A stretch of DNA of 64,000 nt from Candidatus Limnocylindria bacterium (GTDB lineage: Bacteria; Chloroflexota; Limnocylindria; QHBO01): contig DATBJR010000049.1 of the NCBI GenBank assembly GCA_036556325.1, forward strand, positions 24,538 through 88,537, given 5' to 3'. Position 1 is the first letter of the stretch. Each line of letters begins with the position of its first letter. A model generated the notes under the pieces. It made no database searches. It was not told where the DNA came from and saw nothing but the letters and a program-made list of their open reading frames with translations. Position numbers and translations under genes: made by a program. This document shows, in pieces, positions 30,603 to 62,790 of the stretch.

Positions 30603-30947
30603 GTGCGGCGGGTCGTCATCGTGGGCCGTGACCTGATTGCCGCGACCCGGATCGCCGATGCTGCCGCGGCCGCCGGCTGCGACGCGGCCCGGGTGGACAC
30701 CCCGGACCAGCTGCCCGACGCATCGGAGATCGGCCTGGCCTTCGTCGACTGGGACGACCGGCAGGCGGACTGGGGCGCCAGCCTGCGGCGCTGGCGGGAC
30801 GCCGCAGACACCCCGGCTCCGCGCCTCCTGCTCTTCGGTTCGCACCGCGACGTGGCCGGTCATCGCGCGGCGCGAGCCAACGGCCTGGGACCGATGCTGG
30901 CGCGCTCGAAGCTGTTCGCATCGTTGCCGTCATTGCTGCGCGAGTGA
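30603..30947 (+). CDS. Stand-alone receiver (REC)-like domain protein with degenerate acidic pocket
   Basis: 114 aa. The pattern aligns by eye with CheY. RVVIVGRD matches beta1. LAFVDWD matches beta3, with an Asp at the phospho-acceptor position (compare CheY FVISDWNMP). LLLFGSH matches the beta4 Ser/Thr. MLARSKLF matches the beta5 Lys. The stop overlaps the first sulfotransferase start. Confidence 0.35.
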   Translation: MRRVVIVGRDLIAATRIADAAAAAGCDAARVDTPDQLPDASEIGLAFVDWDDRQADWGASLRRWRDAADTPAPRLLLFGSHRDVAGHRAARANGLGPMLARSKLFASLPSLLRE

Positions 30948-31864
30948 CGCACCGCGTGGCGCGGGTCCCGGACTTCTTCATCGTCGGCGCCCCGAAGGCC
31001 GGGACGACCGCGATGTACGAGTACCTGCGCGGTCACCCGGACCTGTTCCTGCCCGAGCGCAAGGAGCTGCGGTTCTTCGGCTCCGACCTCGACATTCGCG
31101 ATCGCACGCCGCTGACGACCGAGCAGTACCTCGACTACTTTGCCGATGCGCCGGCGGGCTCGCTGATCGGGACGGCTTATGTCTGGTACCTGTACTCGCG
31201 GTCGGCGGCGCAGGAGATCGCGGCCTTCAGCCCCGGCGCGCGGATCATCGCCATGCTGCGCAACCCGGTCGCCATGCTGCCGGCGCTGCATGCCGAACAC
31301 CTGACGAACGGGAACGAGGACATCCGCGACTTCACGGCCGCGCTCGACGCGGAGCCTGACCGGCGTGCCGGCCGGCGGATTCCGTCCCACGCCCACCTGC
31401 CGCAGGGCCTCTGGTACACCGATGTGCCGCGCTACGCCGAACAGCTCGAGCGGTACTTCGCGGCCTTCGGTCGCGATCGGGTGCGGGTGATCGTCTTCGA
31501 CGACTTCGTGGCGGACACGGCGGCCGTCTACCGCGACACGCTCCGCTTCCTGGGGGTGGACGACGGCTATCGGCCTCCGACCTTCACCGCGGTGAATGCG
31601 AACCGCCGGATCCGGTCCGAGCGCTGGCGCCATTTCCTGGCCCGCCCGCCGGAGCGGCTGCGGATCCTGATCCACCACCTCGTCCCGGCGCGGCTGCGAC
31701 GCGCGGCCTATGAGCGGGCAAAGGAGCTGAACGTCGTGGCGGCGCCCCGGGAACCCCTTCCGCCGGCGACGGCGGAGCGCCTGGCGGCGGCATTTGGTCC
31801 CGAGGTTGCGCACCTTTCCGCACTGCTCCGCCGCGATCTGACCACCCTCTGGCGGAGCAGTTGA
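30944..31864 (+). CDS. Sulfotransferase, Sulfotransfer_1 type (heparan-sulfate NDST/3-OST-like motif pattern)
   Basis: 5'-PSB loop FFIVGAPKAGTTAMYEYLRGHPDLF. 3'-PB segment RIIAMLRNPVAMLPALH. YAEQLERYF...RVRVIVFDDF...TLRFLGV parallels the NDST sulfotransferase domain layout. Confidence 0.8.
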   Translation: MTHRVARVPDFFIVGAPKAGTTAMYEYLRGHPDLFLPERKELRFFGSDLDIRDRTPLTTEQYLDYFADAPAGSLIGTAYVWYLYSRSAAQEIAAFSPGARIIAMLRNPVAMLPALHAEHLTNGNEDIRDFTAALDAEPDRRAGRRIPSHAHLPQGLWYTDVPRYAEQLERYFAAFGRDRVRVIVFDDFVADTAAVYRDTLRFLGVDDGYRPPTFTAVNANRRIRSERWRHFLARPPERLRILIHHLVPARLRRAAYERAKELNVVAAPREPLPPATAERLAAAFGPEVAHLSALLRRDLTTLWRSS

Positions 31865-32001
31865 CTGCACGCACCGGTACCACCGTCCCGGTTATTGCGC
31901 TAGTACTTCCGTTCAGGCAAAGTCGGGGTCGGAGTTATCGCTTCGTTATCAAGCGCTTATTTACTCGCTGATCCCGAGCATCAGTGCGAGGGGGAGGTTC
32001 A
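31865..32001 (+). promoter_or_regulatory. AT-rich promoter/regulatory region of the main biosynthetic operon, with 11-bp-phased TTAT(C/T) direct repeats
   Basis: Visibly the lowest-GC stretch I noticed. GTTATC at 31934 and 31945 and CTTATT at 31956 are spaced 11 bp apart. Candidate -35 TTATCG (31935-31940), 17-nt spacer, -10 TATTTA (31958-31963). RBS GGGGGAGG at 31989-31997. Confidence 0.4.
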
Positions 32002-32727
32002 TTGGCCGATACCATCCAGCACCGACGGGAGGCTCTGCAGGCAGCCGCCCTCTCGGCACTCCCGCTGCCCGAGCTGGAGTCGGTTCCCGCGCGACCGGAG
32101 GCCTTGACCGCCGTCCGCAAGCGCGCGGTTGACATCGCCGCCGCCGGGGTGCTGCTGCTCGCGTTCAGTCCCCTGTGGCTGCTCTGCGCCCTGCTCATCA
32201 AGCTGACGTCGCGCGGCCCGGTGATCTTCCGCCAGGAACGCATCGGCGCCGGCCAGCGGCCGTTCACCGTCTACAAATTCCGCACCATGCGGGTCGACAC
32301 ATCGGACGCGATCCACCGCGACTTCGTGACGCGCTACATCCTGGGCTCGCTGAGCCTGGACGCCGGTGCCTCCTACAAGCTGCCACGCGATCATCGGATC
32401 ACCGCGATCGGGCGCATCCTGCGCAAGCTCTCGCTCGACGAGGTGCCGCAGCTCGTCAACGTTCTGCGCGGGGAGATGTCGATCGTCGGGCCGCGGCCGC
32501 CGCTGCGCTACGAGGTGGAGAACTACGAGCCGTGGCAGCTCGGCCGCCTGGCCGTGCGGCCGGGCGTCACCGGCCTCTGGCAGGTGTCCGGCCGCAATCG
32601 GCTCAGCTTCGCGGAGATGTGCGAGCTCGACCTGCAGTACATCCAGTCGTGGAGCCTGCGCAAGGACCTGGCGATCATGGTTCGCACGCCGTGGGTCATG
32701 CTCGTGGACGCGGGAGGTGCCGAATGA
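32002..32727 (+). CDS. Priming phosphoglycosyl transferase (small bacterial sugar transferase, WbaP C-terminal/EpsL-like)
   Basis: PVIFRQERIG..RPFTVYKFRTM and DEVPQLVNVLRGEMSIVGPRPP motifs. One N-terminal TM. TTG 32002 preferred over GTG 31984 because of RBS spacing. Confidence 0.85.
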   Translation: MADTIQHRREALQAAALSALPLPELESVPARPEALTAVRKRAVDIAAAGVLLLAFSPLWLLCALLIKLTSRGPVIFRQERIGAGQRPFTVYKFRTMRVDTSDAIHRDFVTRYILGSLSLDAGASYKLPRDHRITAIGRILRKLSLDEVPQLVNVLRGEMSIVGPRPPLRYEVENYEPWQLGRLAVRPGVTGLWQVSGRNRLSFAEMCELDLQYIQSWSLRKDLAIMVRTPWVMLVDAGGAE

Positions 32728-33824
32728 GCGGCATCGTGCGCGCGGGCGTCATCGGCTGCGGCTACTGGGGCCCCAACCTCATCCGCAACTTCGCGCACCA
32801 CGATGACGCCACCGTGGCCATGGTGGCTGACGCGGTGCTCGAACGGGCCCAGCGGGTGGCGCGCATGTACAACGTGCCAGTGGCCACCACCGACGCCATG
32901 GACATCATCTCGTCGCCCGACATCGACGTGGTGGTCGTCGCCACCCCGGCTCGCACCCACGCGCCGCTGGCCAAGGCCGCCATCGAAGCGGGCAAGCATG
33001 TCCTGATCATGAAGCCGATGACGACGTCGGTCGAGGATGCAGAGGAGCTCGTCGCACTCGCCGAGCGCCGGGGCGTCCTGGTGGCCGTGGATCACACGTT
33101 CGTCTACACCGGTGCGGTGCGGATGATGCGCGACCTGGTGGAGAGCGGCGCCCTGGGCGAGATCTTCTACGTGGACAGCGTGCGCATCAACCTGGGTGTC
33201 TTCCAGTCGGACGTGAACGTCATCTGGGACCTGGCGCCGCACGACGTCAGCATCATCGACTACGTTCTCGGCGGCATCCTGCCGACGCAGGTCAGCGCGT
33301 TCGGCGCGGCGCATGCCGGCAGCCGGCGCGAGAACATCGCCTACCTGACCATGCGCTACGGTCCGAACGTGGTCGGTCACGTCCACGTGAACTGGCTCGC
33401 GCCGGCCAAGATCCGCCGCACGATCGTCGGTGGCTCGAAGCAGATGATCGTCTGGGACGACATGCAGCCGTCGGAGAAGCTGCTGATCTACGACAAGGGC
33501 GTGACCATCGCGCCGGATGATGATCCGGAGAAGGTCTACGAGGAGCTCGTGTCGTATCGCTCCGGCGACGTGCTGGCGCCCCGGCTCGATGACCGCGAGG
33601 CGCTGTCGGTCGAGGTGGACGAGGTGATCCGCTGCATCCGCCAGGGCGGCACGCCGATCTCCGACGGATCCGCCGGGCTGCGTGCCGTTCGCGTGCTCGA
33701 GGCGGCAGCCCGATCCGCGCGCGACGGGTCCCATCCCGTCGAGCTTGACGGCGGAAACCCGAATGCCGTCGTGCCGCTGCGGATCGTTCCCGAAACCGAG
33801 GCCCGGGCCGCATCGGCCAAGTAG
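32724..33824 (+). CDS. Gfo/Idh/MocA family NAD(P)-dependent sugar(-nucleotide) oxidoreductase
   Basis: VRAGVIGCGYWGPNLIRNF Rossmann motif. HVLIMKPM (EKP-like). ATGA overlap with the upstream gene. 366 aa. Confidence 0.85.
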   Translation: MSGIVRAGVIGCGYWGPNLIRNFAHHDDATVAMVADAVLERAQRVARMYNVPVATTDAMDIISSPDIDVVVVATPARTHAPLAKAAIEAGKHVLIMKPMTTSVEDAEELVALAERRGVLVAVDHTFVYTGAVRMMRDLVESGALGEIFYVDSVRINLGVFQSDVNVIWDLAPHDVSIIDYVLGGILPTQVSAFGAAHAGSRRENIAYLTMRYGPNVVGHVHVNWLAPAKIRRTIVGGSKQMIVWDDMQPSEKLLIYDKGVTIAPDDDPEKVYEELVSYRSGDVLAPRLDDREALSVEVDEVIRCIRQGGTPISDGSAGLRAVRVLEAAARSARDGSHPVELDGGNPNAVVPLRIVPETEARAASAK

Positions 33825-33902
33825 GCGAGACCCCCGGTCTCCGGCCCCGGCAGGGCGCGCGGTATGATCGGCGCTCGCCCGCGATCGCGATAGGAATCTG
33901 AC

Positions 33903-35012
33903 GTGGAGCTACGAACCCTCTTCCACATCGTCACCAGCCGCTGGTGGCTGGTGCTGCCGATCTTCGTGCTGACGCTTGCCGCCGCGATCGGGTTGACCAT
34001 CGTGCAGCAGCCGCTGTACAGCGCGTCATCCACGTTGGTCGTGGCGCCGTCGGTGACGGACCAGAACACGCTCGACGTCATCTCGCTGCTGTCCCGGCAG
34101 TCGGAGATCAGCGACACCTACGCCCAGATCGGCTCCAGCCGAACGGTGCAGGAGGCCGCCGCCAAGCAGCTCAGCCTGAGCGCGGCGGATCGGGCCGAGC
34201 TGCAGCTGGAGAGCGTCCTGGTCAGCGGCACGACGCTGCTCGAGATCACGGCCACCTCCCCGAACCCGGAGATCGCCGCCGATTACGCCAATGCTGTCTC
34301 GCAGCAGCTGGCGAGCTACGTGAACGCGCACTATGGCGTCTTTTCGGTCAGCGCCCTTGATCCGGCCGGCATTCCGAGCCGTCCCGTGTCGCCCGACGTT
34401 CCGCTCAACCTGGCGCTCGGCGTCGCCGGCGGGCTGGTGCTTGGCGTCGGCCTGGCGCTGGTCGCACACCTCGTCCAGCCGCAGGCCCGGGCGGGGCTGC
34501 GCGATATCGTCGATCCCGAGACCTGGGCCTTCAACGACTCGTACTTCGCCTACCGGCTCGCCCAGGAGATGAACCGCAGCACGCGCAGCCGGCAGACAAC
34601 CGCGGTGGCGCTCATCGACGTCAACCACGAGAACGCGCTCGACGACCTGATGCCCCGCGTCCGGACCGAGGCGTTCCGTCGGATCGCGACCCTGCTGGAC
34701 AGTCACGTCCGACCGGAGGACATCGTGGCGCGCCTGTACGGCAGCGTGTTCGGGATCGTCATGCCGGACACCAACGAGGAGCAGGCGGTGGCCATCGTCG
34801 AGGGCCTGCGCAGCCGGCTGGCGGGCCCCGCCTTCGGCACGACCGCGAACGGCGTCCCGGCCCATGCCAATCCGGCCGCCGGCGTGGTCGAATACCGCGA
34901 GGGATCGGGTGACGTGATGCAGCACGCACAGAGCGCGCTGCGAGCAGCCAAGGAAGGCCCCATCGGGCGAACAGAGGCGTTCTCGGCACTGTCGGTCCAG
35001 CCCGGGACCTGA
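33903..35012 (+). CDS. Polysaccharide co-polymerase (Wzz/PCP) fused to a degenerate GGDEF domain with retained RxxD I-site
   Basis: TM1 (aa 13-33), a ~135-aa external Wzz-like segment, then TM2 (aa 168-190). Residues ~204-360 align along their length with PleD-type GGDEF domains. The active site reads YGSVF (aa 279-283) instead of GG(D/E)EF. RPED (aa 270-273) sits at the canonical I-site distance. Confidence 0.75.
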   Translation: MELRTLFHIVTSRWWLVLPIFVLTLAAAIGLTIVQQPLYSASSTLVVAPSVTDQNTLDVISLLSRQSEISDTYAQIGSSRTVQEAAAKQLSLSAADRAELQLESVLVSGTTLLEITATSPNPEIAADYANAVSQQLASYVNAHYGVFSVSALDPAGIPSRPVSPDVPLNLALGVAGGLVLGVGLALVAHLVQPQARAGLRDIVDPETWAFNDSYFAYRLAQEMNRSTRSRQTTAVALIDVNHENALDDLMPRVRTEAFRRIATLLDSHVRPEDIVARLYGSVFGIVMPDTNEEQAVAIVEGLRSRLAGPAFGTTANGVPAHANPAAGVVEYREGSGDVMQHAQSALRAAKEGPIGRTEAFSALSVQPGT

Positions 35013-35014
35013 CG

Positions 35015-36562
35015 ATGGTCGACCGCCATGTGGTCCTGGCCGCCAAGGGCGGCGGGATGGTGTTCGCTGGGCGCCTTTTCGTGTGGGGCACGCGCTTCGG
35101 CATGGCCGTGCTCCTGGCGCGCCAGATGGGCGCGGACAGCTACGGGCTCTACAACGTCACCCTGACCATCGCCACCCTCGGTTCGGCGTTCTCGGTCATC
35201 GGCCTCGACTCCGCGCTGATTCGCTACGTGGCGGTCTATTCGCGGCGCATGGACCGCTTGGGCGTGCTCGGCACGCTGCGGGTCGGGATCGGCTTACCCA
35301 TGCTGGTGAGCGGCGGCGCGGCGCTCATCCTGCTGCTCCTGGCCGCGCCGGCGGCGCGCCTGGCGGGAGACGTCCGTTTGGAGCCCCTGATCCGGATCGG
35401 CGCGGTGCTGGTGCCGGCCATGGTGTCGAACTCGCTGCTGGCGGCGACCCTGCAGGGCGCCCAGCGCATCGGCTGGGCGGTGCTGGCCGAGCAGTTCGCG
35501 CAGCCGACGGTGCGCCTGGCGATCCTGCTCGTGCTCACCGTCATCGGCATGACCCCCGAGGGTGCGGTCATGGCCTCGACCCTGGCCACGCTGGCGGCGA
35601 CGGCGCTGCTGCTGTGGTTCGTCCAGCGCCAGATCTCGCTGGAGGGCATCGCCGGCGAGGTCCGCGCCGAACCGGGCACGATGCTCCGCTTCTCGCTGCC
35701 GGTGTACTTCTCGAACCTGGTCAACACCTTCGGCGGCAACCTGCAGACGCTGCTGCTCGGCGCCATGGCCTCGATGGCCAAGGCCGGCGTCTTCGGCATC
35801 GCCAACCAGGTGATGCTGGTGGGCGCGATCTTCCACTCGGCGGTCGTGCAGGCCGCCATGCCGATCTTCGCCGAGCTCCAGGACTCTGAAGACCGCAGCC
35901 GCCTCAACGCGCTGTATCGCACCACGTCGAAATGGACGTTCACCCTCAACCTGCCGTTCTTCCTGCTCGCCGTCCTCATGCCGGAGGCGCTGCTCGGGAT
36001 CTTCGGCAGCGACTTCACGAGCGGCGCGACCGCACTCACCATCCTGGCCTTCGCGTCCCTCACCAATGCCGCCACCGGCACCTCTGGCGCCATCCTGGAC
36101 ATGACCGGGCACACCAGCGTCAAGCTCGTCAACTCGACCGTGTCGGTGGGGCTGGCCATCGTCCTGAACCTGCTCCTGATTCCCTCCCTGGGTGTCACGG
36201 GCGCGGCGATCGCCTCGCTCGGATCGGTGGCCTCGGTCAACCTGCTGCGTGTGGGCGAGGTGGCCTGGCTCGTGCACGTCGGCCCCTACGACCGCAGCTG
36301 GGTCAAGCCCGTGATCGCGGGTATTGCCGCCGCCACGGTGGGATGGGCCCTGTTGCTCGGCCTGCAGAACGTCGCATCCCTGCTGGTGCGCAGCGGGGTG
36401 GCAGCGCTCGGCCTGGCGGCGACCTACGTGCTCGTGTTGCTCGTCCTGCGGCTCAGTGACGACGATCGGATCATCGTGTCGCGTGCGGCCCGCAAGTTCA
36501 CCCGGCGGCGGGGAGGTCCGGCGGGCCTGGCGCAGGCCAGCCCCGGCCGCGAGCCGACATGA
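35015..36562 (+). CDS. wzx: Wzx-type oligosaccharide flippase (polysaccharide biosynthesis protein, MOP superfamily)
   Basis: 515 aa with about 14 hydrophobic helices. Position is between the PCP and modification genes. Composition is typical of Wzx/RfbX-like proteins. Confidence 0.8.
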   Translation: MVDRHVVLAAKGGGMVFAGRLFVWGTRFGMAVLLARQMGADSYGLYNVTLTIATLGSAFSVIGLDSALIRYVAVYSRRMDRLGVLGTLRVGIGLPMLVSGGAALILLLLAAPAARLAGDVRLEPLIRIGAVLVPAMVSNSLLAATLQGAQRIGWAVLAEQFAQPTVRLAILLVLTVIGMTPEGAVMASTLATLAATALLLWFVQRQISLEGIAGEVRAEPGTMLRFSLPVYFSNLVNTFGGNLQTLLLGAMASMAKAGVFGIANQVMLVGAIFHSAVVQAAMPIFAELQDSEDRSRLNALYRTTSKWTFTLNLPFFLLAVLMPEALLGIFGSDFTSGATALTILAFASLTNAATGTSGAILDMTGHTSVKLVNSTVSVGLAIVLNLLLIPSLGVTGAAIASLGSVASVNLLRVGEVAWLVHVGPYDRSWVKPVIAGIAAATVGWALLLGLQNVASLLVRSGVAALGLAATYVLVLLVLRLSDDDRIIVSRAARKFTRRRGGPAGLAQASPGREPT

Positions 36563-38112
36563 CGGCGGCCGAATCCACGCGGCGGGAGATGCATCCTGCC
36601 TTTCCCGCCGACGCCCTGGCCCTGACTCGCCAGGTGTTCGGCGCGCTGAACGGCGCCGAGGTGCGGTACTGCCACTGGAAGAGCACGACCGCCCTGGCGC
36701 TGGGCCTGGCCGGTCGGACCGATCTCGACCTGCTGGTCGACCGAGAAGCCGCCGCCGTCTTCGGTGCGACCGTCCGGGCCGCCGGATTCAAGCCGTTCAT
36801 CTCGCATCCCAGCCGGCGCTACGTCGGCGTCGAGGACTGGCTTGGCCACGACACGGCGAGCGGACGGCTGGTCCACCTCCACGTCTACTACCGCCTGGTG
36901 CTCGGCGAGGACTATGTGAAGAACCACGTGCTGCCGATCGAGAAGGCGGTCCTTGACGACGTGGTCCTGCGCGACGGCGTCAAGGTGCCGGCGCCCGCCA
37001 CGGAGCTCGTCATCCTCGTCGTCCGGGCGCTGCTGAAGTACCGTCGCACCGATGCCGCCAAGGACGCCCTGCGGCTCGGGCGGCGCGGTGGCGTCCCGCC
37101 GAACGTGCGTCGCGAAGTGCAGGACCTCTCCGAGCGCGTCACGGCCGCAGAGCTGCGGGCCGCCGCGCAGCGGCTGATGCCGCAGCTGCCGCCGGCAGTC
37201 TTCACTGACTTCGTCGACGCGCTCCGCTCCGACCATCGCAACGCGGCAGCCCTGTTGCGCCTGCGGGGCGTCGCGCGACGCGCGCTGCGCGGCTTCGAGC
37301 GGCTTCCGGCGCACCGCGCCCTGGCCATCTCCGTGAGTGCGCGGCTGCAGCGCGCCCCCGGACTGCGGCGCGTGCTGCGCCCGCAATCGAAGGCGGACCT
37401 GCGGCGCAAGTCCTCCGCTGCCGGCGGCCTGACGGTGGCGCTCATCGGCCCCGATGGCGCGGGCAAGACGACGGTGATCGACGAGGTCGTGCGCTGGCTT
37501 GGTTGGCGCCTCAGCCTGCGGACCTCGTATCTCGGGACTGCACGGCCCTCGACCTCGACGGCGGCCGTGCAGGTGCTGAGCCGATACGCGCGGCGCCTCG
37601 CTCGCCGTCGCGAGGCAGGAGGGCGCGCCCCTTCCGGGTCGCTCGACCGCGTCGCCAGGCTGCTGGCAGCCACGCGCTACCTGGCCGAGGCACGCGACCG
37701 GGCCCGCCGCGCGCGCGAGGGACGCCGCCTGGCCGCGAACGGTACGCTGGTCCTCTTCGACCGCTATCCGTTGCCGTGGGTCAGGCTGGCCAATCGGCCG
37801 GTCGACGGGCCGCGGATCGCCGAGCTGCAGGAAGCCCGCGGCCGGGGCCTGCTCGGGATGCTGCAGCGGCGGGAGGAGGCCACCTACGCGGCCATGCCGG
37901 CCCCGGACCTGGTCATCCTGCTTGCCGTCGACCCCGAGGTGGCACTGGCCCGCAAGGGCAACCAGGACCGTGATGCGATCGTGGCCAAGGCGCGTGCCGT
38001 CCAGGAGGCCGCGGCCGGCGCGGATCGCGATGGGGTGGTGGTGGTCGATGCTGGCCAGCCGCTCGATACCGTCGTCGGCCAGGTCGAGGCGGCCATCTGG
38101 CAGCGGCTCTGA
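36559..38112 (+). CDS. Two-domain protein: NTP_transf_5-like nucleotidyltransferase-fold domain + thymidylate-kinase-like P-loop domain
   Basis: N-terminal part has YCHWKST...GRTDLDLLVD...VHLHVYY (polymerase-beta-like DxD pattern). C-terminal part has P-loop ALIGPDGAGKTT (aa 294-305), LVLFDRYP (DRY-like) and DLVILLAVDPEVALARK. ATGA overlap with wzx. Confidence 0.6.
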   Translation: MTAAESTRREMHPAFPADALALTRQVFGALNGAEVRYCHWKSTTALALGLAGRTDLDLLVDREAAAVFGATVRAAGFKPFISHPSRRYVGVEDWLGHDTASGRLVHLHVYYRLVLGEDYVKNHVLPIEKAVLDDVVLRDGVKVPAPATELVILVVRALLKYRRTDAAKDALRLGRRGGVPPNVRREVQDLSERVTAAELRAAAQRLMPQLPPAVFTDFVDALRSDHRNAAALLRLRGVARRALRGFERLPAHRALAISVSARLQRAPGLRRVLRPQSKADLRRKSSAAGGLTVALIGPDGAGKTTVIDEVVRWLGWRLSLRTSYLGTARPSTSTAAVQVLSRYARRLARRREAGGRAPSGSLDRVARLLAATRYLAEARDRARRAREGRRLAANGTLVLFDRYPLPWVRLANRPVDGPRIAELQEARGRGLLGMLQRREEATYAAMPAPDLVILLAVDPEVALARKGNQDRDAIVAKARAVQEAAAGADRDGVVVVDAGQPLDTVVGQVEAAIWQRL

Positions 38113-40903: not shown

Positions 40904-40946
40904 GCCTCGATAGTCCCATTGTGCCGTGGTACCTGAGGGGAGTCTT

Positions 40947-42839: not shown

Positions 42840-42858
42840 TCCCGCGCCGCCCTCAGCG

Positions 42859-49164: not shown

Positions 49165-49259
49165 GTGAGGAACGGTCCAGCTGCTGCGTCGAAGCCGCAG
49201 TGTACCGGCGCATGACCCGAAATGCCGCATCGGGCACGCCGGATGGCAACATTGTGGTG

Positions 49260-53760: not shown

Positions 53761-54001
53761 GCGTTCGTCCGGGGGACGACGCTGGTACGACGGGCCCAGC
53801 GGATGGGGTGGTCCGCATCGGTCCGGTGCGGAGCGGAGCGGTCGATCGGCCCGCTTCGCCGACGCGAGCGCTGCCGCGCAGGACTCATTCGCTACTGCGG
53901 CGCGGCGTGCTGGGCACGTAGGGTCCTCGAACCATTGCCAGCCGCGGCGCGTCGGTCGGGTCCCCTCGACCACCGCGCACGCCGAGACGGAGTGACCTAG
54001 C

Positions 54002-55675: not shown

Positions 55676-55756
55676 GGACGTGGCGGCAGTCAGTGCAGCG
55701 GCGCGACGCCGAGCGCGCTACCGTGCACGTCCACACCACGGGATGACGGAGGTTGC

Positions 55757-57082
55757 ATGTCCTTGACTCGGCTCAGCGTCTTCGGGCTCGGCTACGTGGG
55801 CGCCGTGACCAGCGCCTGCCTGGCCGACCTGGGCGTCGAGGTTACCGGCGTTGACCTGAACCCGCTGAAGGTCGACACCATCAACGCCGGCCGCAGCCCG
55901 ATCGTGGAGGGCGGCCTCGACGAGCTGATCGCCGCCGGCGTCGCCGCGGGACGGCTGCGCGCGACACCGGATGCCGAAGCGGCCGTGCTCAATAGCGACA
56001 TCTCCATGATCTGCGTGGGCACCCCCAGCCATGCCAACGGCAGCCTGGACCTCACGGCCGTCCAACGCGTGGCGGAAACCGTCGGGGCGGCCATCGCTCG
56101 CAAGGGGGCGTGGCACCTGGTCGTGGTCCGGAGCACGATGCTGCCGGGCAGCACCGAGGAGCAGGTGGTGCCGCTGCTCGAGCGCCACTCCGGCCTGCGG
56201 GCGGGCACGGATTTCGGGGTCTGCTACAACCCGGAATTCCTCCGCGAGGGCAGCTCGATCGAGGACTTTCACCATCCGCCGTTCACCATCATCGGCAGCG
56301 ACGATCCACGCGCCGCAGCCGCTGCCGCCGCTCCGTATGCCGCCCTGCAGGGCGAGGTGATCACGACCTCCATCCGCGCGGCGGAGATGGTCAAGTACGT
56401 CTGCAACGCCTTCCACGCGCTGAAGGTGACGTTCGCCAACGAGGTCGGGCTGATCGCGTCGGCGCACGGGGTCGACAGCCACGAGGTGATGGACATCATC
56501 GGCCGCGACCACAAGCTGAACATCTCGACGGCCTACCTGCGACCGGGCTTCGCCTTCGGCGGGTCCTGCCTGCCGAAGGACCTGCGGGCGCTGACCCATG
56601 ACGCGAAGCGCAATGACCTGGAGGTGCCGGTGCTGTCGGCCATCCTGCCCAGCAACGAGCAGCACGTCGCGCGCGCGTACGAGCTCGTGCGAGCCACCGG
56701 CGCCCGCCGCATCGGCGTCTTGGGCCTCAGCTTCAAGGCCGGCACCGATGACCTGCGCGAGAGCCCGCTGGTCGCGCTGGTGGAGCGCCTGATCGGCCGC
56801 GGCTACGACGTGCGAGTGCACGATCCGAACGTCGCCTACGCCAACCTGCACGGCGCGAATCGCGCGTACATCGAGCAGGAGATCCCGCACATCGTCTCCA
56901 TCCTCACCGAGACCGCCGACGATCTGCTGCAGCACAGCGAGGTGGTCATCATCGGCAACGGCGATCCCGAGCACGTCCGCACTCTGCAGCGGCTGCGTGA
57001 CGGGCAGCAGGTCATCGACCTCGTCCGTCCCAGGGGCATGGAGCCGATGGATCCCGCTCACTACACCGGCATCGCCTGGTAG
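55757..57082 (+). CDS. Nucleotide-sugar 6-dehydrogenase, GDP-mannose 6-dehydrogenase (AlgD)-like
   Basis: LSVFGLGYVGAVTSACLADLG..., INAGRSPIVE, ICVGTPSHANGSLDL and VVRSTMLPGS parallel AlgD. Catalytic Cys lies in FGGSCLPKD. GGAGG RBS. Confidence 0.8.
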   Translation: MSLTRLSVFGLGYVGAVTSACLADLGVEVTGVDLNPLKVDTINAGRSPIVEGGLDELIAAGVAAGRLRATPDAEAAVLNSDISMICVGTPSHANGSLDLTAVQRVAETVGAAIARKGAWHLVVVRSTMLPGSTEEQVVPLLERHSGLRAGTDFGVCYNPEFLREGSSIEDFHHPPFTIIGSDDPRAAAAAAAPYAALQGEVITTSIRAAEMVKYVCNAFHALKVTFANEVGLIASAHGVDSHEVMDIIGRDHKLNISTAYLRPGFAFGGSCLPKDLRALTHDAKRNDLEVPVLSAILPSNEQHVARAYELVRATGARRIGVLGLSFKAGTDDLRESPLVALVERLIGRGYDVRVHDPNVAYANLHGANRAYIEQEIPHIVSILTETADDLLQHSEVVIIGNGDPEHVRTLQRLRDGQQVIDLVRPRGMEPMDPAHYTGIAW

Positions 57083-57099
57083 GTCGGACGACCTCGCCG

Positions 57100-57354
57100 A
57101 TGCGGGGCACCGGGCGACCCGCTAGGGTTCGCGACGTGACCCCCGACCGCGTCCTGGCGTGGCTGATGGCCGTTGTCCTGGCCGCCGTTGGCGGTGCCGC
57201 GGTAGCCGTGCCGCTGACCCTGCTGGTGCGCGCCTGGCTTAGTGACTGGCCCAACGGCTCGTGGGCGGCGGTGATCGCCATCGGCTACCTGGCCTGGGCC
57301 GCGACCTCGCTGGGGATCAGCGCCTACTGGCTGCGGCGGCAGGCAGGCCGATGA
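57100..57354 (+). CDS. Small two-TM membrane protein
   Basis: Two hydrophobic helices. The stop overlaps the epimerase start (ATGA). Start uncertain (ATG 57100 or GTG 57136). Confidence 0.4.
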   Translation: MRGTGRPARVRDVTPDRVLAWLMAVVLAAVGGAAVAVPLTLLVRAWLSDWPNGSWAAVIAIGYLAWAATSLGISAYWLRRQAGR

Positions 57355-58370
57355 GCCGCTCCATGCCGAATCGGCGGGCGGTGGTCACCGGCGGCGCTGG
57401 CTTCGTCGGCAGCACCCTGGTGGATCGCCTGCTGTCCGACGGATGGGAGGTCGTGGCGCTCGACAACTTCGATGAGTCGACCTACGGTCGTGCCGCGAAG
57501 CTCCGCAACCTGGCTGGCGCCCTGGCCGCACCGGCATTCGAGCTGCGCGAGGTCGACACCCGCGACGCGGCCGCGGTCATGACCGCGCTGCGCGACGTGG
57601 CACCCGGCGTCGTTTTCGACCTGGCGGCACGTGCGGGGGTCCGCCCGTCGATCGCCGACCCCGGGGCGTACGTGGCCACCAACGTCGCCGGGTTCCAGAA
57701 CACGCTGTCGGCCGCCGCCGCGGTCGGAGCTCGGGTCGTCTTTGCCTCGTCGAGCTCGATCTACGGCGACGACGACCGTCGCCCGTTCGTGGAGGACCAG
57801 GCCCGCGGGCGGCCGGAGTCGCCCTACGGGGCCACCAAGATCGCCGGCGAGGCGCTGGCCTTTGCCCACGGGCGGGCCACCGGGCTGCCGGTCGGCGTCG
57901 CGCGGCTGTTCACCGTCTACGGCCCGCGGCAGCGGCCGGACCTCGCCATCCACGCCTTCGCGCGACGCATCCTGGCGGGGGAGCCGGTGGTGCTGTTCGA
58001 CGAGGGACGCGGGTTGCGCGACTACACCTTCGTGACCGACGTCGTCGAGGCGCTGGTCCGACTATCGGACGCTGAGGACCGGTATCTGGTGGTCAACGTC
58101 GGCAGCGATCGGCCGATCCTGACCTCGCAGGTCATCGACGAGCTGGAGCGGGCGCTGGGCACCGTCGCGACCCGTGAGCTGGCACCGGCCCAACCTGGCG
58201 ACGTGCCGGCCACGCACGCCGACGTCAGTCGAGCGCGCAGCACGCTCGGCTGGTCGCCGCGGGTCCCGTTCGCGGAGGGCATCGACCGGTTCTGTGTCTG
58301 GCTGGTCGCTGAACAGGCAGCGGACCCCGATCAGGCCTCGGTCATCGAGGCGCGGCCCACGCCGACGTAG
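57351..58370 (+). CDS. NAD-dependent nucleotide-sugar epimerase/dehydratase (SDR; UDP-glucuronate/UDP-glucose 4-epimerase-like)
   Basis: VVTGGAGFVGSTLV (GxxGxxG), DNFD, ASSSSIYG, YGATKIAGE (YxxxK). Confidence 0.85.
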   Translation: MSRSMPNRRAVVTGGAGFVGSTLVDRLLSDGWEVVALDNFDESTYGRAAKLRNLAGALAAPAFELREVDTRDAAAVMTALRDVAPGVVFDLAARAGVRPSIADPGAYVATNVAGFQNTLSAAAAVGARVVFASSSSIYGDDDRRPFVEDQARGRPESPYGATKIAGEALAFAHGRATGLPVGVARLFTVYGPRQRPDLAIHAFARRILAGEPVVLFDEGRGLRDYTFVTDVVEALVRLSDAEDRYLVVNVGSDRPILTSQVIDELERALGTVATRELAPAQPGDVPATHADVSRARSTLGWSPRVPFAEGIDRFCVWLVAEQAADPDQASVIEARPTPT

Positions 58371-59659
58371 CGCAGCCCGGCGGCCCGCACCGCACCGGGC
58401 TCGAGCGCGTTGCGCGCGTCGAACAGCAGGTCACCCTTCATCACCTCGGCCAGGGCTGCCGGGCTGAGCGTGACGTATTCCGGCCACTCGGTGGCGAGCA
58501 CGACCGCATCGGCTCCGCTAGAGGCCTCCAGCGGCCCGGCGCAGATCGTCAGCCACGGCGCCTGTCGCGACACGGCCGCGGCGGCCTTGGGATCGCAGCC
58601 CACCACCGTTGCTCCCCGATCGCGGAGCACCGCGGCCAGGGCCAGGGCCGGGGAGTCGCGGATGTCATCCGTCCCCGGCTTGAAGGCGAGTCCCAGGAGT
58701 GCCACCCGGCGGCCGGCGACCTGGCCGTCGAGATCCGCTGCCAGGCGATCCGCGGCGAGGCCCGGCTGGCCCGCATTCACCGCGTCCACGGCCCCGGCCA
58801 GTGCGAGCTCCACGTCACGCTGGCGGCCCATGGCGATCATGGAGCGCACGTCCTTGGGCAGGCACGAGCCTCCGTAGCCGATGCCGGGGCGGAGGTAGTC
58901 GCCGCCGATGCGTGGATCGGACGAGATGCCGCGGAGCACGTCGTCGATCACCGCGCCGGTGGCGTCGCACAGCATGGCCAGCTCGTTGATGAAGCTGATC
59001 CGGGTGGCCAGGTAGGCATTGGCGGCGTTCTTGGTGAGCTCCGCGCTCTCGGCGTCGACCACCAGGATAGGGGCTTCCAGCGGGCGGTAGAGCGTCGACA
59101 GCAGCTCCGCGTGGTCGTCGTCGCCCAGGTCCGCTCGGCCGACCACCACCCGCGACGGGTGCAGGAAGTCCTCGAGGGCGCGCCCGGTCCGCAGGAATTC
59201 GGGGTTGGCGAGCACCGGCACCGACCAGTCGAGGCCACGGGCAGCGAGGGCTTGGTTCAGCGCGCGCTCCGCGGCACGGGTCGTGCCAACCGGCACGGTA
59301 CTGCGCAGCGCAACCACCACGGGATGATCCAGTGCCTGGCCCAGCGTGTCGAAGACGCTGTGCACGGCAGCGAGGTCCGCCTCGCCGGTCGGGGCCGACG
59401 GGGTCCCGACGCAGACCAGCACAACGTCGGCGTCGCGGAGGGCCTCCTCGGCGTCGAGCGTGAAGCGCAGGCGCCCATCGCTCTGCTGGAGGGTCAGCTC
59501 CGACTGGAGGCCCGGCTCGTAGTAGGGGGCCTCCCCGCGCTCGAGCGAGTGGAGCTTTTCGGCGTCCACTTCCAGCCCCACCACGCGCTGGCCGAGCCGA
59601 GCCAGGCAGGTGGCGGTGACAAGGCCCACGTAGCCAAGGCCGATGACGGCGATCTGCAT
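58331..59659 (-). CDS. ugd: UDP-glucose 6-dehydrogenase
   Basis: Internal ATG 59659. MQIAVIGLGYVGLVTATCLA, GEAPYYEPGL, catalytic Cys in GYGGSCLPKD. 442 aa. Confidence 0.85.
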   Translation of the reverse strand: MQIAVIGLGYVGLVTATCLARLGQRVVGLEVDAEKLHSLERGEAPYYEPGLQSELTLQQSDGRLRFTLDAEEALRDADVVLVCVGTPSAPTGEADLAAVHSVFDTLGQALDHPVVVALRSTVPVGTTRAAERALNQALAARGLDWSVPVLANPEFLRTGRALEDFLHPSRVVVGRADLGDDDHAELLSTLYRPLEAPILVVDAESAELTKNAANAYLATRISFINELAMLCDATGAVIDDVLRGISSDPRIGGDYLRPGIGYGGSCLPKDVRSMIAMGRQRDVELALAGAVDAVNAGQPGLAADRLAADLDGQVAGRRVALLGLAFKPGTDDIRDSPALALAAVLRDRGATVVGCDPKAAAAVSRQAPWLTICAGPLEASSGADAVVLATEWPEYVTLSPAALAEVMKGDLLFDARNALEPGAVRAAGLRYVGVGRASMTEA

Positions 59660-59807
59660 CTGCGTTCCCTTGATGGCAATGTCGGATGAGTACGGGGACC
59701 GGATGATAGCGAGTGCGGCCAGCAGCATCGGACCGGGGAGGGTGCACTGCTGGCCGGATGGTGGATAATCCACGCTCCGCGCTCGTCCTTCGTTCAAGGG
59801 GTGCCCC

Positions 59808-61013
59808 ATGGCAGCAGCCGCCCGCCGGCATTGCATGGTCGTCGACAACGTGTATCCCGATCCGCGCGTGGAGCGCGAGGCGAATGCCCTGCTGGAGCGC
59901 GGCTACTGGGTCGACGTCGTCTGCCTGCTCAGCCCCGGTCTGCCCCGCCGCGAGCGCATCGGCCGCCTCACGATCCATCGGCTGCCGATCAAGCGGCGAC
60001 GTGGCGCCTCGGCGCTGACGCAGCTGTGGGAGTACCTGGCCTTCGCGGCCTGGGCGACCGCGCTGGTCGCGGTCCGGCACCTCCGGACGCCGTACGACGT
60101 CGTGCAGGTGCACAACGTCCCCGATTTCCTCGTCTTCAGTGCCGTGGTGCCGAAGCTGGCGGGCGCCGGCGTGATCCTGGATCTCCACGACCTGATGCCA
60201 GAATTCTTCGCCAGCCGCTTCGGCCGTGACCTGAGCTCCAGGTTGGGACGGGCAGTGCTCTTCCAGGAGCGGCTGTCGACGGCCTTTGCCGACGAGGTGA
60301 TCACCGTCACCGACCTCTGGCGTTCGCGGCTGATCCGTCGCGGCGTGCCGGCCGAGAAGGTCCACGTCGTCATGAACCTGCCGGACCCGCACGAATACCC
60401 CATGCGCGAGCCGGTCGTGCGACGCACGGACGGTCCATTGACCGTCGTCTACCACGGGACATTGACACGCCGCTACGGGATCGACGTCCTGCTCATGGCG
60501 TTCGCGCTGGCTCGCCCCCGCGTCCCGCTGCGGTTGCTCATCCACGGGCGTGGCGAGTACCGCGACGAGGCGATGCAGCTTGGCGAGCAGCTGGGCCTGG
60601 GGGACACGGTGCGATGGAGCACGGGCCACCTGTCGACGACGGCGCTCGCCTCCCTGATCAGCCACGGCGACATCGGAGTGGTGCCCAACCGCAACGATGT
60701 ATTCACCGACGAGATCCTGCCCACCAAGCTGATGGAGTACGCCGCGCTCGGGATCCCGACCATCGCGTCGCGATCCACGGCGGTCGAGAGCTACTTCACC
60801 GACGAGATGGTCCGCTTCGTCGAGCCGGGCGATGCCGAGGCCATGGCCGAGGCGCTGGTGGAGCTCGCCACCGATCCGGACCGACGCGCTACGCTGGCGA
60901 CCAACGCGCAGCGCTTCTCACGACAATTCCAATGGGCCGATCAGGCAGCCGCCTACGAGGCGCTCGTGCACCGGCTCGGAGGGGAAAAGCCCGCGACGAT
61001 GGAGACCGCATGA
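59808..61013 (+). CDS. Glycosyltransferase family 4 (GT-B)
   Basis: VYHGTL..RYGIDVLL, IHGRGEYRDE, and PTKLMEYAALGIPTIASRS (EX7E-like region). Confidence 0.8.
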   Translation: MAAAARRHCMVVDNVYPDPRVEREANALLERGYWVDVVCLLSPGLPRRERIGRLTIHRLPIKRRRGASALTQLWEYLAFAAWATALVAVRHLRTPYDVVQVHNVPDFLVFSAVVPKLAGAGVILDLHDLMPEFFASRFGRDLSSRLGRAVLFQERLSTAFADEVITVTDLWRSRLIRRGVPAEKVHVVMNLPDPHEYPMREPVVRRTDGPLTVVYHGTLTRRYGIDVLLMAFALARPRVPLRLLIHGRGEYRDEAMQLGEQLGLGDTVRWSTGHLSTTALASLISHGDIGVVPNRNDVFTDEILPTKLMEYAALGIPTIASRSTAVESYFTDEMVRFVEPGDAEAMAEALVELATDPDRRATLATNAQRFSRQFQWADQAAAYEALVHRLGGEKPATMETA

Positions 61014-62104
61014 TCCCGATTGCCCGCCCCGTGCTTGGGGAAGAAGAGAAGGCGCTGGTGTGGAGCGCCATGGAGGCCGGCCAGCTGGCGCAGGGCGCCA
61101 GGGTGGCCGAGTTCGAGGAGCGCTTCGCGCGCTTCGTCGGCGCCGAGCACGCGGTGGCGGTCAGCTCCGGCACCACCGCCATCCATCTCGCCCTGCTGGC
61201 GGCCGGCATCGGCGCCGGCGACGAGGTCATCACCGTCTCGTTCACGTTCACCGCCAGCGCCAGCGGCATCCTGCACGCCGGGGCCCGGCCAGTCTTCATC
61301 GACGTCGACCCGGTCAGCTTCACCATGGACCCGGCGCAGATCGAGGCGGCCATCACGCCCCGGACGCGCGCCGTGATGCCGGTCAGCCTCTACGGCAACC
61401 CGGCGGACCTGCCCGCGATCATGGAGATCGCCAATCGCCACGGCCTGCGCCTGATCGAGGACGCCTGCCAGGCGCACGGCGCCTCGCTCGACGGGCGTCG
61501 CAGTGGCGCGTGGGGGACCGCCGTCTTCAGCTTCTACCCGACCAAGAACATGACCACCGGGGAAGGCGGGATGATCACCACCGACGATGCCGAGCTGGCC
61601 GAACGCGCGAGCCTGCTCCGAGCGCACGGCATGCGGGAGCGCTACAAGCCGGAGATGCTGGGCTACAACTTCCGGATGACCGATCTCGGAGCCAGCATCG
61701 GCCTGGCGCAGCTCGACAAGCTGCCGGCGGCCAATGCCCGTCGCCGGGCGATCGCCGACCGCTACGACCGCGAGCTGCAGGGGGTCATGACGCCCCAGCG
61801 GCGGCCGAACGCCGAGCATGCCTTCCACCAGTACACGCTGCGCGTCGCGCAACGCGACCGGTTCCTGGCGCGCCTGGCCGAGCTCGGCGTCGGCGCCAAC
61901 GTCTACTACCCGGTGCCGGTCCATCGCCAGACGCCGTTCCTCGAGGTCGCGGGTCAGCCGCTGCTGCCGGTCACCGAGATGCTCACCGACCAGATCATCT
62001 CCATCCCGGTCTACCCGAATCTGACCGATGACGAGGTCACGACCATCATCGGCGCCGTCAACCAGGTCGCAGGCGAGATCGGGGAGCGCCTGCCGAGCGA
62101 GTGA
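61010..62104 (+). CDS. DegT/DnrJ/EryC1/StrS family PLP-dependent sugar aminotransferase
   Basis: IPIARPVLGEEE, AVSSGTTAIHLAL, and PLP lysine in SFYPTKNMTTGEGG. ATGA overlap with the upstream GT. Confidence 0.9.
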   Translation: MIPIARPVLGEEEKALVWSAMEAGQLAQGARVAEFEERFARFVGAEHAVAVSSGTTAIHLALLAAGIGAGDEVITVSFTFTASASGILHAGARPVFIDVDPVSFTMDPAQIEAAITPRTRAVMPVSLYGNPADLPAIMEIANRHGLRLIEDACQAHGASLDGRRSGAWGTAVFSFYPTKNMTTGEGGMITTDDAELAERASLLRAHGMRERYKPEMLGYNFRMTDLGASIGLAQLDKLPAANARRRAIADRYDRELQGVMTPQRRPNAEHAFHQYTLRVAQRDRFLARLAELGVGANVYYPVPVHRQTPFLEVAGQPLLPVTEMLTDQIISIPVYPNLTDDEVTTIIGAVNQVAGEIGERLPSE

Positions 62105-62790
62105 CCATGCTGATCGGCTCCGGACGCGCGTCATCGGGCCAGGGCCCGGTCTGCGATCGCTGCGGCCGGCCGGAGCCCGATCGCTATCGCTTCTGCCCGG
62201 AATGCGAGCTGTTCGTGTGCGCCCAGTGCTGGGACCCGGAGAGCGGTGTCTGTCTCAGCTCGTCACGTCCGAACCTGCCGGCCCCCGGCCTGCTGCCGAT
62301 TTCGATCAGGAACACCATCGGCCAGCGCTCGGCCGGTGTCTCCATGAGCGCGAGCCGGGTCGGCCAGGCGCTCGTCGGGCGCGGCGCACGGCGCCCGGAC
62401 CCTGCGCCCCGCGCATCGGGCGTGGCTGCAGCTCGGCCCTCGCGGGCGAAGGCGCAGGTTGCGCCGGTAGGCATGCTGGCCGTCGTCGCAGCGGGCGTGC
62501 TCTTCGCGGTGGCGCTCTTCGCGGTTCCAGCGCTCGTGCGACTGGGGTCGGATGGGCCGCAGGCCTCGGTTCCTCCCGCGGTCGCCACCCGGGAGAGCGG
62601 AGTGCAGGGCGGGACGTCAACCAAACAGACAGCCCGGAAGTACGTGGTGCGGCCCGGGGACACGCTGCGATCGATCGCTGCCCGGCTCTACGGCAACGAG
62701 GATCGCTGGTCCGATCTGTACCGGGCCAATCGCAAGGTCATCGACGATCCGGACGCGCTCGGGGTGGGCACCACCCTCACCGTGCCGTAG
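62101..62790 (+). CDS. Zinc-ribbon / TM / LysM domain protein
   Basis: N-terminal CDRCG...CPEC...CAQC zinc-ribbon cysteines. Central TM MLAVVAAGVLFAVALFAV. C-terminal LysM YVVRPGDTLRSIAARLYG...LGVGTTLTVP. GTG overlaps the DegT stop. Confidence 0.7.
   Translation: MTMLIGSGRASSGQGPVCDRCGRPEPDRYRFCPECELFVCAQCWDPESGVCLSSSRPNLPAPGLLPISIRNTIGQRSAGVSMSASRVGQALVGRGARRPDPAPRASGVAAARPSRAKAQVAPVGMLAVVAAGVLFAVALFAVPALVRLGSDGPQASVPPAVATRESGVQGGTSTKQTARKYVVRPGDTLRSIAARLYGNEDRWSDLYRANRKVIDDPDALGVGTTLTVP

Follow-up and report, generated by a model that had tools for sequence, protein, structure and literature searches.

The 64-kb stretch analysed here (the window; contig DATBJR010000049.1 of assembly GCA_036556325.1) comes from an uncultured high-GC soil bacterium of the lineage Candidatus Limnocylindria (Chloroflexota). 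It contains a polysaccharide locus in which eight predicted sulfotransferase (ST) genes are interspersed with the genes of a Wzx/Wzy-type pathway. The locus is bordered by pgl (6-phosphogluconolactonase; 28681–29454) on one side and by cysS (62821–63990, minus strand) on the other; genes are on the plus strand unless stated otherwise. As the window has a GC content of about 70%, raw lists of open reading frames (ORFs) are full of spurious frames. Coding frames were picked by third-position GC content, which gave 28 genes from 30.1 to 62.8 kb of the window. High GC content and the upstream operon tkt-tal-zwf-opcA-pgl at first suggested an actinobacterial origin. This was rejected: for ST8, the kinase-like gene 38112–39875 and the flanking pgl and opcA genes, the nearest genomes belong to Candidatus Limnocylindria. 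This Chloroflexota host agrees with the high-GC, monoderm-type bacterium supposed in an earlier note on this DNA. Identical proteins, looked up for genes with an ATG start, are known only from short metagenome contigs. The ST8 alignment was used to scan 185,579 species genomes for relatives (loci numbered with the prefix L). The closest ST8 relatives are again in Candidatus Limnocylindria, the best of them at 76% identity. Two of the related loci, L089 and L012, are the two halves of the locus in one metagenome-assembled genome (MAG), GCA_036556695.1.

All eight ST genes exceed the Pfam gathering cut-off of Sulfotransfer_3 (PF13469, 27 bits) with 49–111 bits, and six also pass that of PF00685. 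With their PF13469 scores, the genes are ST1 (30944–31864; 50.5 bits, and 24.3 bits to PF00685), ST2 (39869–40879; 80.5 bits), ST3 (42859–43767; 49.0 bits), ST4 (43722–44696, minus strand; 52.4 bits), ST5 (44918–45853; 110.8 bits), ST6 (45863–46840, minus strand; 107.1 bits), ST7 (46847–47701, minus strand; 67.3 bits) and ST8 (50438–51346, minus strand; 107.8 bits). A hidden Markov model built from the eight sequences retrieves exactly these eight from the window. They lie within 30.9–51.3 kb, and the remaining ~43 kb are free of matches. In the joint alignment, a loop of the type that binds the 5'-phosphosulfate (5'-PSB) of 3'-phosphoadenosine 5'-phosphosulfate (PAPS) is in register in every enzyme (PKAGTT, DRCGKT, ARSGHS, PYSGST, HRSGTT, ERTGTS, DHSGKT and PRTGST from ST1 to ST8). 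Lys or Arg occupies the canonical position of this loop in six enzymes. A segment of the 3'-phosphate-binding (3'-PB) type (RNP, RDPR or RDVR), including its Arg, is likewise aligned in all eight, and six of the enzymes also have the Ser/Thr downstream of it. ST3 carries the sequence RNPYDNI and ST4 the sequence RDVRGV together with a Cys-rich insert.

The Pfam match of ST4 is limited to positions 115–213 of the profile, its C-terminal half, and ST4 was considered as a half sulfotransferase. This is ruled out by the PYSGST loop, which aligns with those of the other seven enzymes, and by full-length orthologs of ~322 aa. With the start corrected, ST4 covers 43722–44696 (ATG, ~324 aa). The corrected start of ST7 is a GTG that overlaps the stop codon of wzy, and the start codon of ST5 is TTG. 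Hydrophobic-segment prediction finds neither a transmembrane nor a signal segment in any of the eight STs, which are therefore predicted to be cytoplasmic, where PAPS is located. The ST genes are interleaved with the core genes on both strands and belong to several transcription units. Overlaps indicate translational coupling of the kinase-like gene to ST2 (-7 nt), of wzy to ST7 (-4 nt) and of a small ORF to ST1 (-4 nt).

ST8 is the one ST for which a structural model was calculated (AlphaFold2, 35-sequence alignment). The model has a pLDDT of 87.8 and a pTM of 0.87. In a Foldseek search of the PDB, every one of its 50 best matches is a PAPS sulfotransferase, with a template-modelling score of up to 0.65. 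The protein-tyrosine sulfotransferases TPST1/2 rank first, followed by CurM-ST, OLS-ST, the mycobacterial Stf9 and Stf1, the bacterial ST of PDB entry 3rnl and the heparan-sulfate 3-O-sulfotransferases (3-OSTs). ST1 matches 3rnl with 142 bits and, weakly, 3-OST and the N-sulfotransferase domain of NDST (E 1e-4 for the latter). By these matches it belongs to a subfamily other than that of ST8, one resembling the heparan-sulfate STs. The eight ORFs taken for sulfotransferases in the earlier note thus hold up in family and in both PAPS-binding motifs, and for ST8 structure prediction extends this to the fold.

The Wzx/Wzy set is complete. Besides Wzx and Wzy themselves, it contains a priming transferase, a co-polymerase of the Wzz type and four glycosyltransferases (GTs) of the GT4/GT-B type. 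The priming polyprenyl-phosphate glycosyl-1-phosphate transferase (PGT; 31984–32727) is of the small Bac_transf type with one transmembrane segment (PF02397, 215 bits; TIGR03025, 279 bits). At least seven transmembrane segments are predicted in the Wzx-type flippase (35015–36562; PF01943/PF13440) and at least eight in the Wzy-type polymerase (47698–49230, minus strand; PF04932, Wzy_C, 55.9 bits). Two of the GTs are assigned to GT4, at 49200–50450 (PF00534, 129.7 bits; PF13439) and at 59808–61013 (PF00534, 75.8 bits; PF13579). The other two are GT-B enzymes, one at 51491–52720 (PF13692, 127.9 bits) and a divergent one at 52717–53760 (PF13692, 40.3 bits) with orthologs at 49–76% identity. Among the locus genes, Pfam detects neither Wza or another outer-membrane polysaccharide export (OPX) protein nor a CapB/Wzc kinase domain. 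A monoderm would not be expected to have OPX.

The co-polymerase (33903–35012; PF02706, PF13807, PF00990) combines a Wzz/GNVR part with two transmembrane segments and a cytoplasmic, degenerate GGDEF domain. This domain keeps an intact RxxD I-site (RPED) and has YG(S/T)VF in place of the active-site motif GG(D/E)EF. The pattern RPED-IVARL-YG(S/T)VF is conserved in L089 and L091, and the GGDEF domain is the best-conserved part of the co-polymerase. Because the degenerate domain keeps its I-site and is conserved best, sensing of cyclic di-GMP (c-di-GMP) by the co-polymerase is suggested. The domain may be a c-di-GMP receptor that stands in for the bacterial tyrosine kinase (BY-kinase).

Two nucleotide-sugar dehydrogenases carry UDPG_MGDP domains (Pfam). 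The 441-aa enzyme 55757–57082 matches the GDP-mannose 6-dehydrogenase AlgD of P. aeruginosa (pdb entry 1mfz) over its full length with 490 bits. UDP-glucose 6-dehydrogenase is the nearest family in NCBIfam for both enzymes; for 55757–57082, this assignment is overturned by the match to AlgD. The 505-aa enzyme 58331–59848 (minus strand) is Ugd-like, with 332 bits to the UDP-glucose dehydrogenases 4a7p and 2y0e. Between them lies a nucleotide-sugar epimerase/dehydratase of the short-chain dehydrogenase/reductase (SDR) family (57261–58370; PF01370), a candidate UDP-glucuronic acid (UDP-GlcA) 4-epimerase. Its PDB neighbors include the UDP-GlcA 4-epimerases MoeE5 and BcUGAepi (the latter of B. cereus), and also a dTDP-glucose 4,6-dehydratase. 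An amino-sugar pathway is represented by a Gfo/Idh/MocA oxidoreductase (32724–33824) and a DegT/PseC/ArnB-type aminotransferase (61010–62104; PF01041, 425.5 bits). The oxidoreductase resembles UDP-GlcNAc 3-dehydrogenase, with 165.8 bits to NF040723, a score that falls short of the equivalog cut-off. Pfam and NCBIfam reveal no N-acetyltransferase in the locus.

The 557-aa protein 54002–55675 is a predicted polysaccharide lyase of the pectate lyase PelZ/VexL type (NF041900, 148.7 bits; no Pfam match) with one N-terminal transmembrane segment. It matches the pectate lyase of pdb entry 9buj (E 1e-23) and, partially, the Vi-antigen lyase VexL (6fi2; E 4e-7 over ~70 residues). Probably, this membrane-anchored protein is a lyase for the polymer made by the locus itself. 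A lyase homolog of this kind is an independent indication of uronic acids in the product and strengthens the term 'uronic-acid-rich' used in the earlier note. The assembly and precursor genes listed there are also recovered. Pfam bears out the Wzx/Wzy toolkit, with the PGT now called at 31984 and the first GT at 49200, and comparison with PDB sequences (490 and 332 bits) bears out the AlgD-like and Ugd-like dehydrogenases. The epimerase, the oxidoreductase and the aminotransferase correspond to SDR, GFO_IDH_MocA and DegT domains at the positions given above.

Two further proteins of the locus are predicted to be exported or membrane-bound. The 637-aa protein 40926–42839, located between ST2 and ST3, starts with an anchor or signal, contains a weak NHL repeat and ends in an NTTRR-F1 domain. 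Its orthologs in L007, L008, L089 and L091 are 53–69% identical, and orthologs in relatives are annotated as CBM_4_9 (weak). At the end of the locus, the protein 62101–62790 consists of a zinc ribbon, a single transmembrane segment and a LysM domain (PF01476), and the start of its gene overlaps the DegT stop by 4 nt. The LysM protein may link the locus to peptidoglycan.

Two kinase-like genes lie between wzx and ST2, and translational coupling joins the four genes, from wzx through 36559–38112 and 38112–39875 to ST2. The first product combines an N-terminal domain of no recognised family with a dTMP-kinase-like P-loop domain and is conserved in L009, L089 and L091; searched alone, it gives no significant match. 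The second has an N-terminal P-loop domain and a C-terminal small-molecule kinase domain that resembles aminoglycoside phosphotransferases (APH) and eukaryotic-type protein kinases (PF01636, 86.6 bits). All catalytic residues of the latter protein are invariant (GxxGxGK and HGDxxxxN..D). Its model (pLDDT 89) is nearest in fold to homoserine kinase II, YihE, AmiN and NahK. Only 54 relatives are found among 5.8 billion proteins, and the four that have an organism name are all from Limnocylindria. The pair is kept with the locus even in L009 and L011. In the P-loop proteins of the locus, Pfam finds no match to the adenosine 5'-phosphosulfate (APS) kinase domain PF01583. The profile of the N-terminal domain of the P-loop kinase matches APS and dTMP kinases over the Walker-A segment only. 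A sugar kinase, phosphorylation of the polymer and supply of PAPS are candidate roles for the two proteins.

The STs of the window are only 25–41% identical to each other, and each of them has a one-to-one ortholog in the close relatives at 58–84% identity. ST2, ST3, ST5, ST6 and ST8 have further orthologs at 50–65% in other Limnocylindria, their orthogroups being spread over 6, 8, 12, 12 and 15 loci, respectively. The ST1 ortholog in L089 is 77% identical, the ST4 orthologs 68–75%, and the ST7 orthologs, confined to close relatives, 58–61%. In the seven orthogroups examined (of eight), the orthologs keep the group-specific signature of the PAPS loop, e.g. GPDRCGKT, GHARSGHS, (E/D)R(T/S)GTS, LDHSGKT or PRTGST, each with a matching variant of the 3'-PB segment. 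Judged by these identities, the eight STs are ancient, deeply diverged paralogs. Low identity between paralogs, high identity between orthologs and conserved signatures point to long-term purifying selection on distinct enzymes. This pattern is the best available computational support for a regiospecific action of the STs, which the earlier note had proposed and which gains strength from it.

In GCA_036556695.1, the left half of the locus is likewise placed after opcA-pgl. Its locus genes are 53–84% identical to those of the window and the flanking housekeeping genes 69–75%. The arrangement at the pgl-proximal site is common to three more MAGs with long contigs (L007, L008 and L091), which brings the related MAGs with the whole locus at this site, between pgl and cysS, to at least four. 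Besides GCA_036556695.1, the bins with ENA accessions ERZ25039555, ERZ25039510 and ERZ25039532 hold the locus. Since synteny is found at the same site and the divergence is close to that of the flanking genes, the locus is chromosomal and vertically inherited in this lineage. The more distant Limnocylindria loci L009–L011 keep a core of Wzx, the two kinase-like genes, Wzy, three GTs and the AlgD-like gene, together with orthologs of ST2, ST3, ST5, ST6 and ST8. Back-to-back arrays of 5–7 STs are also present in Anaerolineales, Ca. Trichofilum and other Chloroflexota MAGs, and L010 has seven STs within 7.5 kb. By these comparisons, Limnocylindria typically carry ST-dense loci, similar ones reappear elsewhere in the Chloroflexota, and the locus in the window is no singleton.

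Two observations on the related loci are added here. In place of the AlgD-like gene, L007 (2548–5687) and L008 (1573–5409) contain an E1 alpha/beta pair of a thiamine-pyrophosphate (TPP) enzyme with hexapeptide-repeat and biotin-lipoyl proteins, a region that looks like a variable cassette for precursor synthesis or modification. Tandem arrays of 4–5 ST-domain proteins occur in gammaproteobacterial MAGs (L044, L075, L035 and L073; Rhodanobacteraceae and others). To judge from their length of ~550 aa, these proteins differ in architecture from the Chloroflexota enzymes of ~300 aa.

Taken together, the locus rather likely makes a Wzx/Wzy-dependent, uronic-acid-containing heteropolysaccharide with sulfate groups at several distinct positions. 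Direct observations comprise the gene content, the motifs, the modelled fold of ST8, the synteny and the conservation of the ST orthogroups; from them we infer the order of the steps, the stoichiometry and the presence of sulfate. In the cytoplasm, the AlgD-like and Ugd-like enzymes would provide GDP-mannuronic acid (GDP-ManA) and UDP-GlcA, the SDR probably UDP-galacturonic acid (UDP-GalA), and the oxidoreductase with the DegT enzyme an amino sugar, as their families suggest. On polyprenyl phosphate, the PGT and the four GT-B enzymes would then assemble a repeat of at most five sugars, and each of the eight soluble PAPS-type STs would add sulfate to this lipid-linked repeat at a position of its own. 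Sulfation is placed before export because the STs have no transmembrane or signal segments and PAPS is cytoplasmic. Wzx would flip the unit, and Wzy with the Wzz-type co-polymerase would polymerise it, the degenerate GGDEF domain of the latter probably sensing c-di-GMP. Finally, the membrane-anchored pectate-lyase/VexL-like enzyme would trim or release the polyuronate.

Eight STs and five sugars set a ceiling of 1.6 sulfates per sugar if each ST acts once per repeat. By these gene counts, the product is probably a very highly sulfated, heparin-like polymer. A fully specified version of this idea is doubtful, namely a heparin-grade hypersulfated polyuronate (at least ~1.5 sulfates per sugar) whose repeat of at most five sugars contains ManA, GlcA/GalA and an amino sugar, the latter possibly non-acetylated and N-sulfated. 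In this version, polymerisation would be gated by c-di-GMP through the co-polymerase, and the lineage-specific pair of P-loop/APH kinases would either act as a non-orthologous APS kinase that provides PAPS or introduce phosphate.

Several points weigh against a product sulfated by all eight STs at distinct positions, the most general being that the sulfated product is a genomic prediction for an uncultured organism and that the acceptor positions of the STs cannot be deduced from their sequences. The number of STs also varies among relatives. An extra 241-aa Sulfotransfer_2-like gene, absent from the window, is located between the ST5 and ST4 orthologs in L007 (16504–17229) and L091 (15878–16603). 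Not every ST, then, need act on every repeat. This variation, with ST7 confined to close relatives, would fit a polysaccharide on which the STs produce variable, sub-stoichiometric patterns with modest average sulfation, as in heparan-sulfate-like 'codes' or with enzymes used under specific conditions. The distribution of the STs over both strands and several transcription units would permit differential expression, and many eukaryotic glycosaminoglycan (GAG) STs act sub-stoichiometrically. However, five of the eight orthogroups are kept across Chloroflexota orders with intact motifs, and several STs are translationally coupled to core genes, both of which argue for constitutive joint action. 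Patterned sulfation of this kind is considered unlikely.

A second point concerns the acceptor. The nearest solved relatives of the ST8 clade are protein-tyrosine sulfotransferases and not carbohydrate STs; the sequence profile matches TPST at E 1e-16. Some or most STs might thus act on non-glycan acceptors (protein tyrosines as with RaxST or TPST, lipids or small molecules) and merely be co-located with the polysaccharide genes. CurM-ST and the mycobacterial Stf enzymes are also among the closest relatives of the ST8 clade, and the locus encodes the secreted proteins 40926–42839 and 62101–62790. PF13469 is a broad family, however, and the identity of ST8 and TPST in the structural match is only 17–18%. 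The interleaving of the STs with wzy and the GT genes is conserved over a long evolutionary distance, and the characterised Wzx/Wzy clusters with STs sulfate their glycan. Furthermore, the STs are predicted to be cytoplasmic, whereas tyrosine sulfation, in bacteria and eukaryotes, has as its known targets peptides that depend on dedicated export. Genes resembling RaxX or RaxB were not seen. Non-glycan acceptors for most of the STs are accordingly improbable.

Further points concern the activity of the enzymes. The usual catalytic Lys/Arg of the 5'-PSB loop is a Tyr in ST4 and a His in ST7, and the usual serine of the 3'-PB segment is replaced by Ala in ST1 and by Glu in ST7. Genes for APS kinase, ATP sulfurylase, PAPS reductase, CysQ and sulfate uptake were not found among the called genes of the window, which upholds the statement of the earlier note that PAPS synthesis, a sulfate transporter and a PAP phosphatase are not encoded there. 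A crude regular-expression scan of 1.5 Mb of related loci found no CysC, Sat, CysD, CysH or CysQ signature in the Chloroflexota ST loci; its one CysD-like match is in an unrelated proteobacterial locus. These searches cover the window and the related loci. The STs could then be largely non-functional for want of PAPS, or their fold could be reused for PAPS-independent chemistry, for mere binding or for transient sulfation that creates a leaving group, as in CurM and OLS, whose STs are among the closest folds. Genes for PAPS synthesis are normally unlinked housekeeping genes, however, and all orthogroups examined conserve their PAPS-binding motifs strictly, which would not be expected of decaying genes. 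Eight paralogs maintained across orders imply a function. A loss or reuse of this kind is very improbable, and a glycan sulfated at several positions is retained as the preferred reading.

The closest characterised system is the synechan cluster (xss) of Synechocystis sp. PCC 6803, a Wzx/Wzy cluster whose 2 STs and 8 GTs make a product with 2 sulfates for every 8 sugars (PMC8205485). Synechan has also been transferred to Synechococcus as a host (PMC13125312). Gene number thus matches product stoichiometry in synechan, and its authors described two ST genes in one exopolysaccharide (EPS) cluster as unprecedented (PMC8205485). As in synechan, the STs of the window lie inside a complete Wzx/Wzy cluster, are cytoplasmic by prediction and belong to distinct bacterial subfamilies (PMC8205485). 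In contrast to the 2 STs and 8 GTs that build synechan from neutral sugars, there are 8 STs and 5 sugar transferases in the window, together with uronic-acid precursor genes and a lyase, both of which are missing in xss (PMC8205485). Synechan is further distinguished by the regulators XssQ/R/S and by its diderm cyanobacterial host, which needs OPX (PMC8205485). No set of the XssS/XssR/XssQ type (response regulator, histidine kinase, STAND protein) was found among the locus genes. The locus works like synechan, yet is outside that system, with no XssQRS, with other precursors and in another phylum.

The cluster wps-1 of Actinoplanes missouriensis contains 2 STs and the protein-kinase-like WpsI, and sulfation of its product is predicted (PMC13390465, 2026). 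Both loci are Wzx/Wzy clusters of monoderms with STs of different families and a kinase-like gene, the counterpart in the window being the P-loop/APH kinase (PMC13390465). By gene content, wps-1 differs in having only 2 STs, a GH26 hydrolase and a methyltransferase, in lacking a lyase and uronate dehydrogenases, and in its phylum (PMC13390465). The EPS of Pontiella sulfatireligans F21 reacts as a sulfated GAG-like polymer and is mostly N-sulfated (PMC7356697). Like the window, this organism has a PF13469 ST in a cluster that is rich in GTs and includes a sugar aminotransferase (PMC7356697). In this diderm member of the Kiritimatiellota, however, there is one ST in the cluster, with three candidates in the genome, and no Wzy/co-polymerase/uronate set is described (PMC7356697).

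Vi antigen (TviB/TviC and VexL) resembles the predicted product in that a nucleotide-sugar 6-dehydrogenase and a 4-epimerase feed a polyuronate and that a depolymerase with pectate-lyase fold is encoded in the locus. Vi, on the other hand, is an O-acetylated, unsulfated homopolymer that depends on an ABC transporter. The rhizobial and mycobacterial enzymes NodH, LpsS, KpsS and Stf0/Stf1/Stf9 are PAPS-type bacterial STs as well, and Stf1 and Stf9 are close to the ST8 model. They are single enzymes that transfer one sulfate onto a lipo-oligosaccharide, lipopolysaccharide, capsular polysaccharide or trehalose, and NodH has dedicated PAPS genes (nodPQ), which the locus lacks.

The machinery of heparan sulfate and heparin (NDST, 2-OST, 3-OST, 6-OST) also applies several PAPS-dependent STs to a polymer of uronic acid and amino sugar, the regiospecificity of the STs being predicted in the case of the window. 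It modifies a finished chain in the Golgi lumen, whereas the STs studied here presumably act in the cytoplasm on a lipid-linked repeat. Homologs of the N-deacetylase and C5-epimerase of this machinery are absent from the locus. Among the locus genes there is no match to a GAG synthase (KfiA/KfiC, PmHS or HAS type) or to GT2/GT45, only GT4/GT-B enzymes and the PGT. The description 'glycosaminoglycan-like' in the earlier note consequently fits only loosely: genes for uronate and an amino sugar are present, and a synthase of the GAG type is not. For alginate, the AlgD homolog is present (490 bits). Alg8/Alg44 (GT2 synthase, PilZ), AlgG and AlgL (PL5) were not found in the locus, which has Wzx/Wzy and the pectate-lyase-like lyase instead. 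By its gene content, the locus is thus neither an alginate locus (no Alg8/44) nor a GAG locus (no GAG synthase). With eight STs, the locus far exceeds every bacterial system studied so far. Literature searches found no characterised multi-sulfotransferase equivalent, as the earlier note had maintained, and nothing relevant on Limnocylindria, Chloroflexota or Anaerolineae in connection with sulfotransferases and polysaccharides.

At its left edge, the locus begins with two small conserved ORFs without Pfam match, one of 152 aa (30143–30601; high third-position GC content) and one of 114 aa (30603–30947), the end of which overlaps the start of ST1 by 4 nt. Both are conserved between pgl and ST1 in L089 and L091, at 53–80% identity for the two together and at 68–80% for the first. 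Directly upstream of the locus is a pentose-phosphate operon, tkt-tal-(weak PGI-like)-gnd-zwf-opcA-pgl (20016–29454, plus strand). The Limnocylindria MAG GCA_036556695.1 also has an opcA-containing pentose-phosphate arrangement. A 107-aa protein with two treble-clef zinc-finger domains (PF13451, PF23477) is encoded at 19478–19801 (plus strand) and has no relation to the locus.

What is new is an ST-decorated Wzx/Wzy polysaccharide locus with an inverted ratio of STs to GTs in the Chloroflexota, as far as gene content tells. Sulfated polysaccharides are valued as analogues of heparin and carrageenan and as matrices that bind metals and water. The eight diverged, apparently regiospecific predicted carbohydrate STs would be a panel for glyco-engineering. 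Two side leads are the predicted c-di-GMP-sensing co-polymerase and a new family of two-domain kinases.

Bacterial sulfated polysaccharides are still described as essentially cyanobacterial (PMC8205485; PMC13390465). Surveys of granular sludge and biofilms report sulfated, partly N-sulfated GAG-like polymers, the makers and genes of which are unattributed (PMC7356697 among others). The locus is a concrete genetic candidate for such sulfated GAG-like polymers of environmental biofilms. In a widespread lineage of uncultured bacteria, it is kept at one chromosomal position, and ST-dense relatives are found across the Chloroflexota. If the hypersulfated version outlined above is true, Limnocylindria and other Chloroflexota, abundant members of soil, freshwater and sludge communities, would be named as producers of these polymers, and a genetic basis for their synthesis would be at hand.

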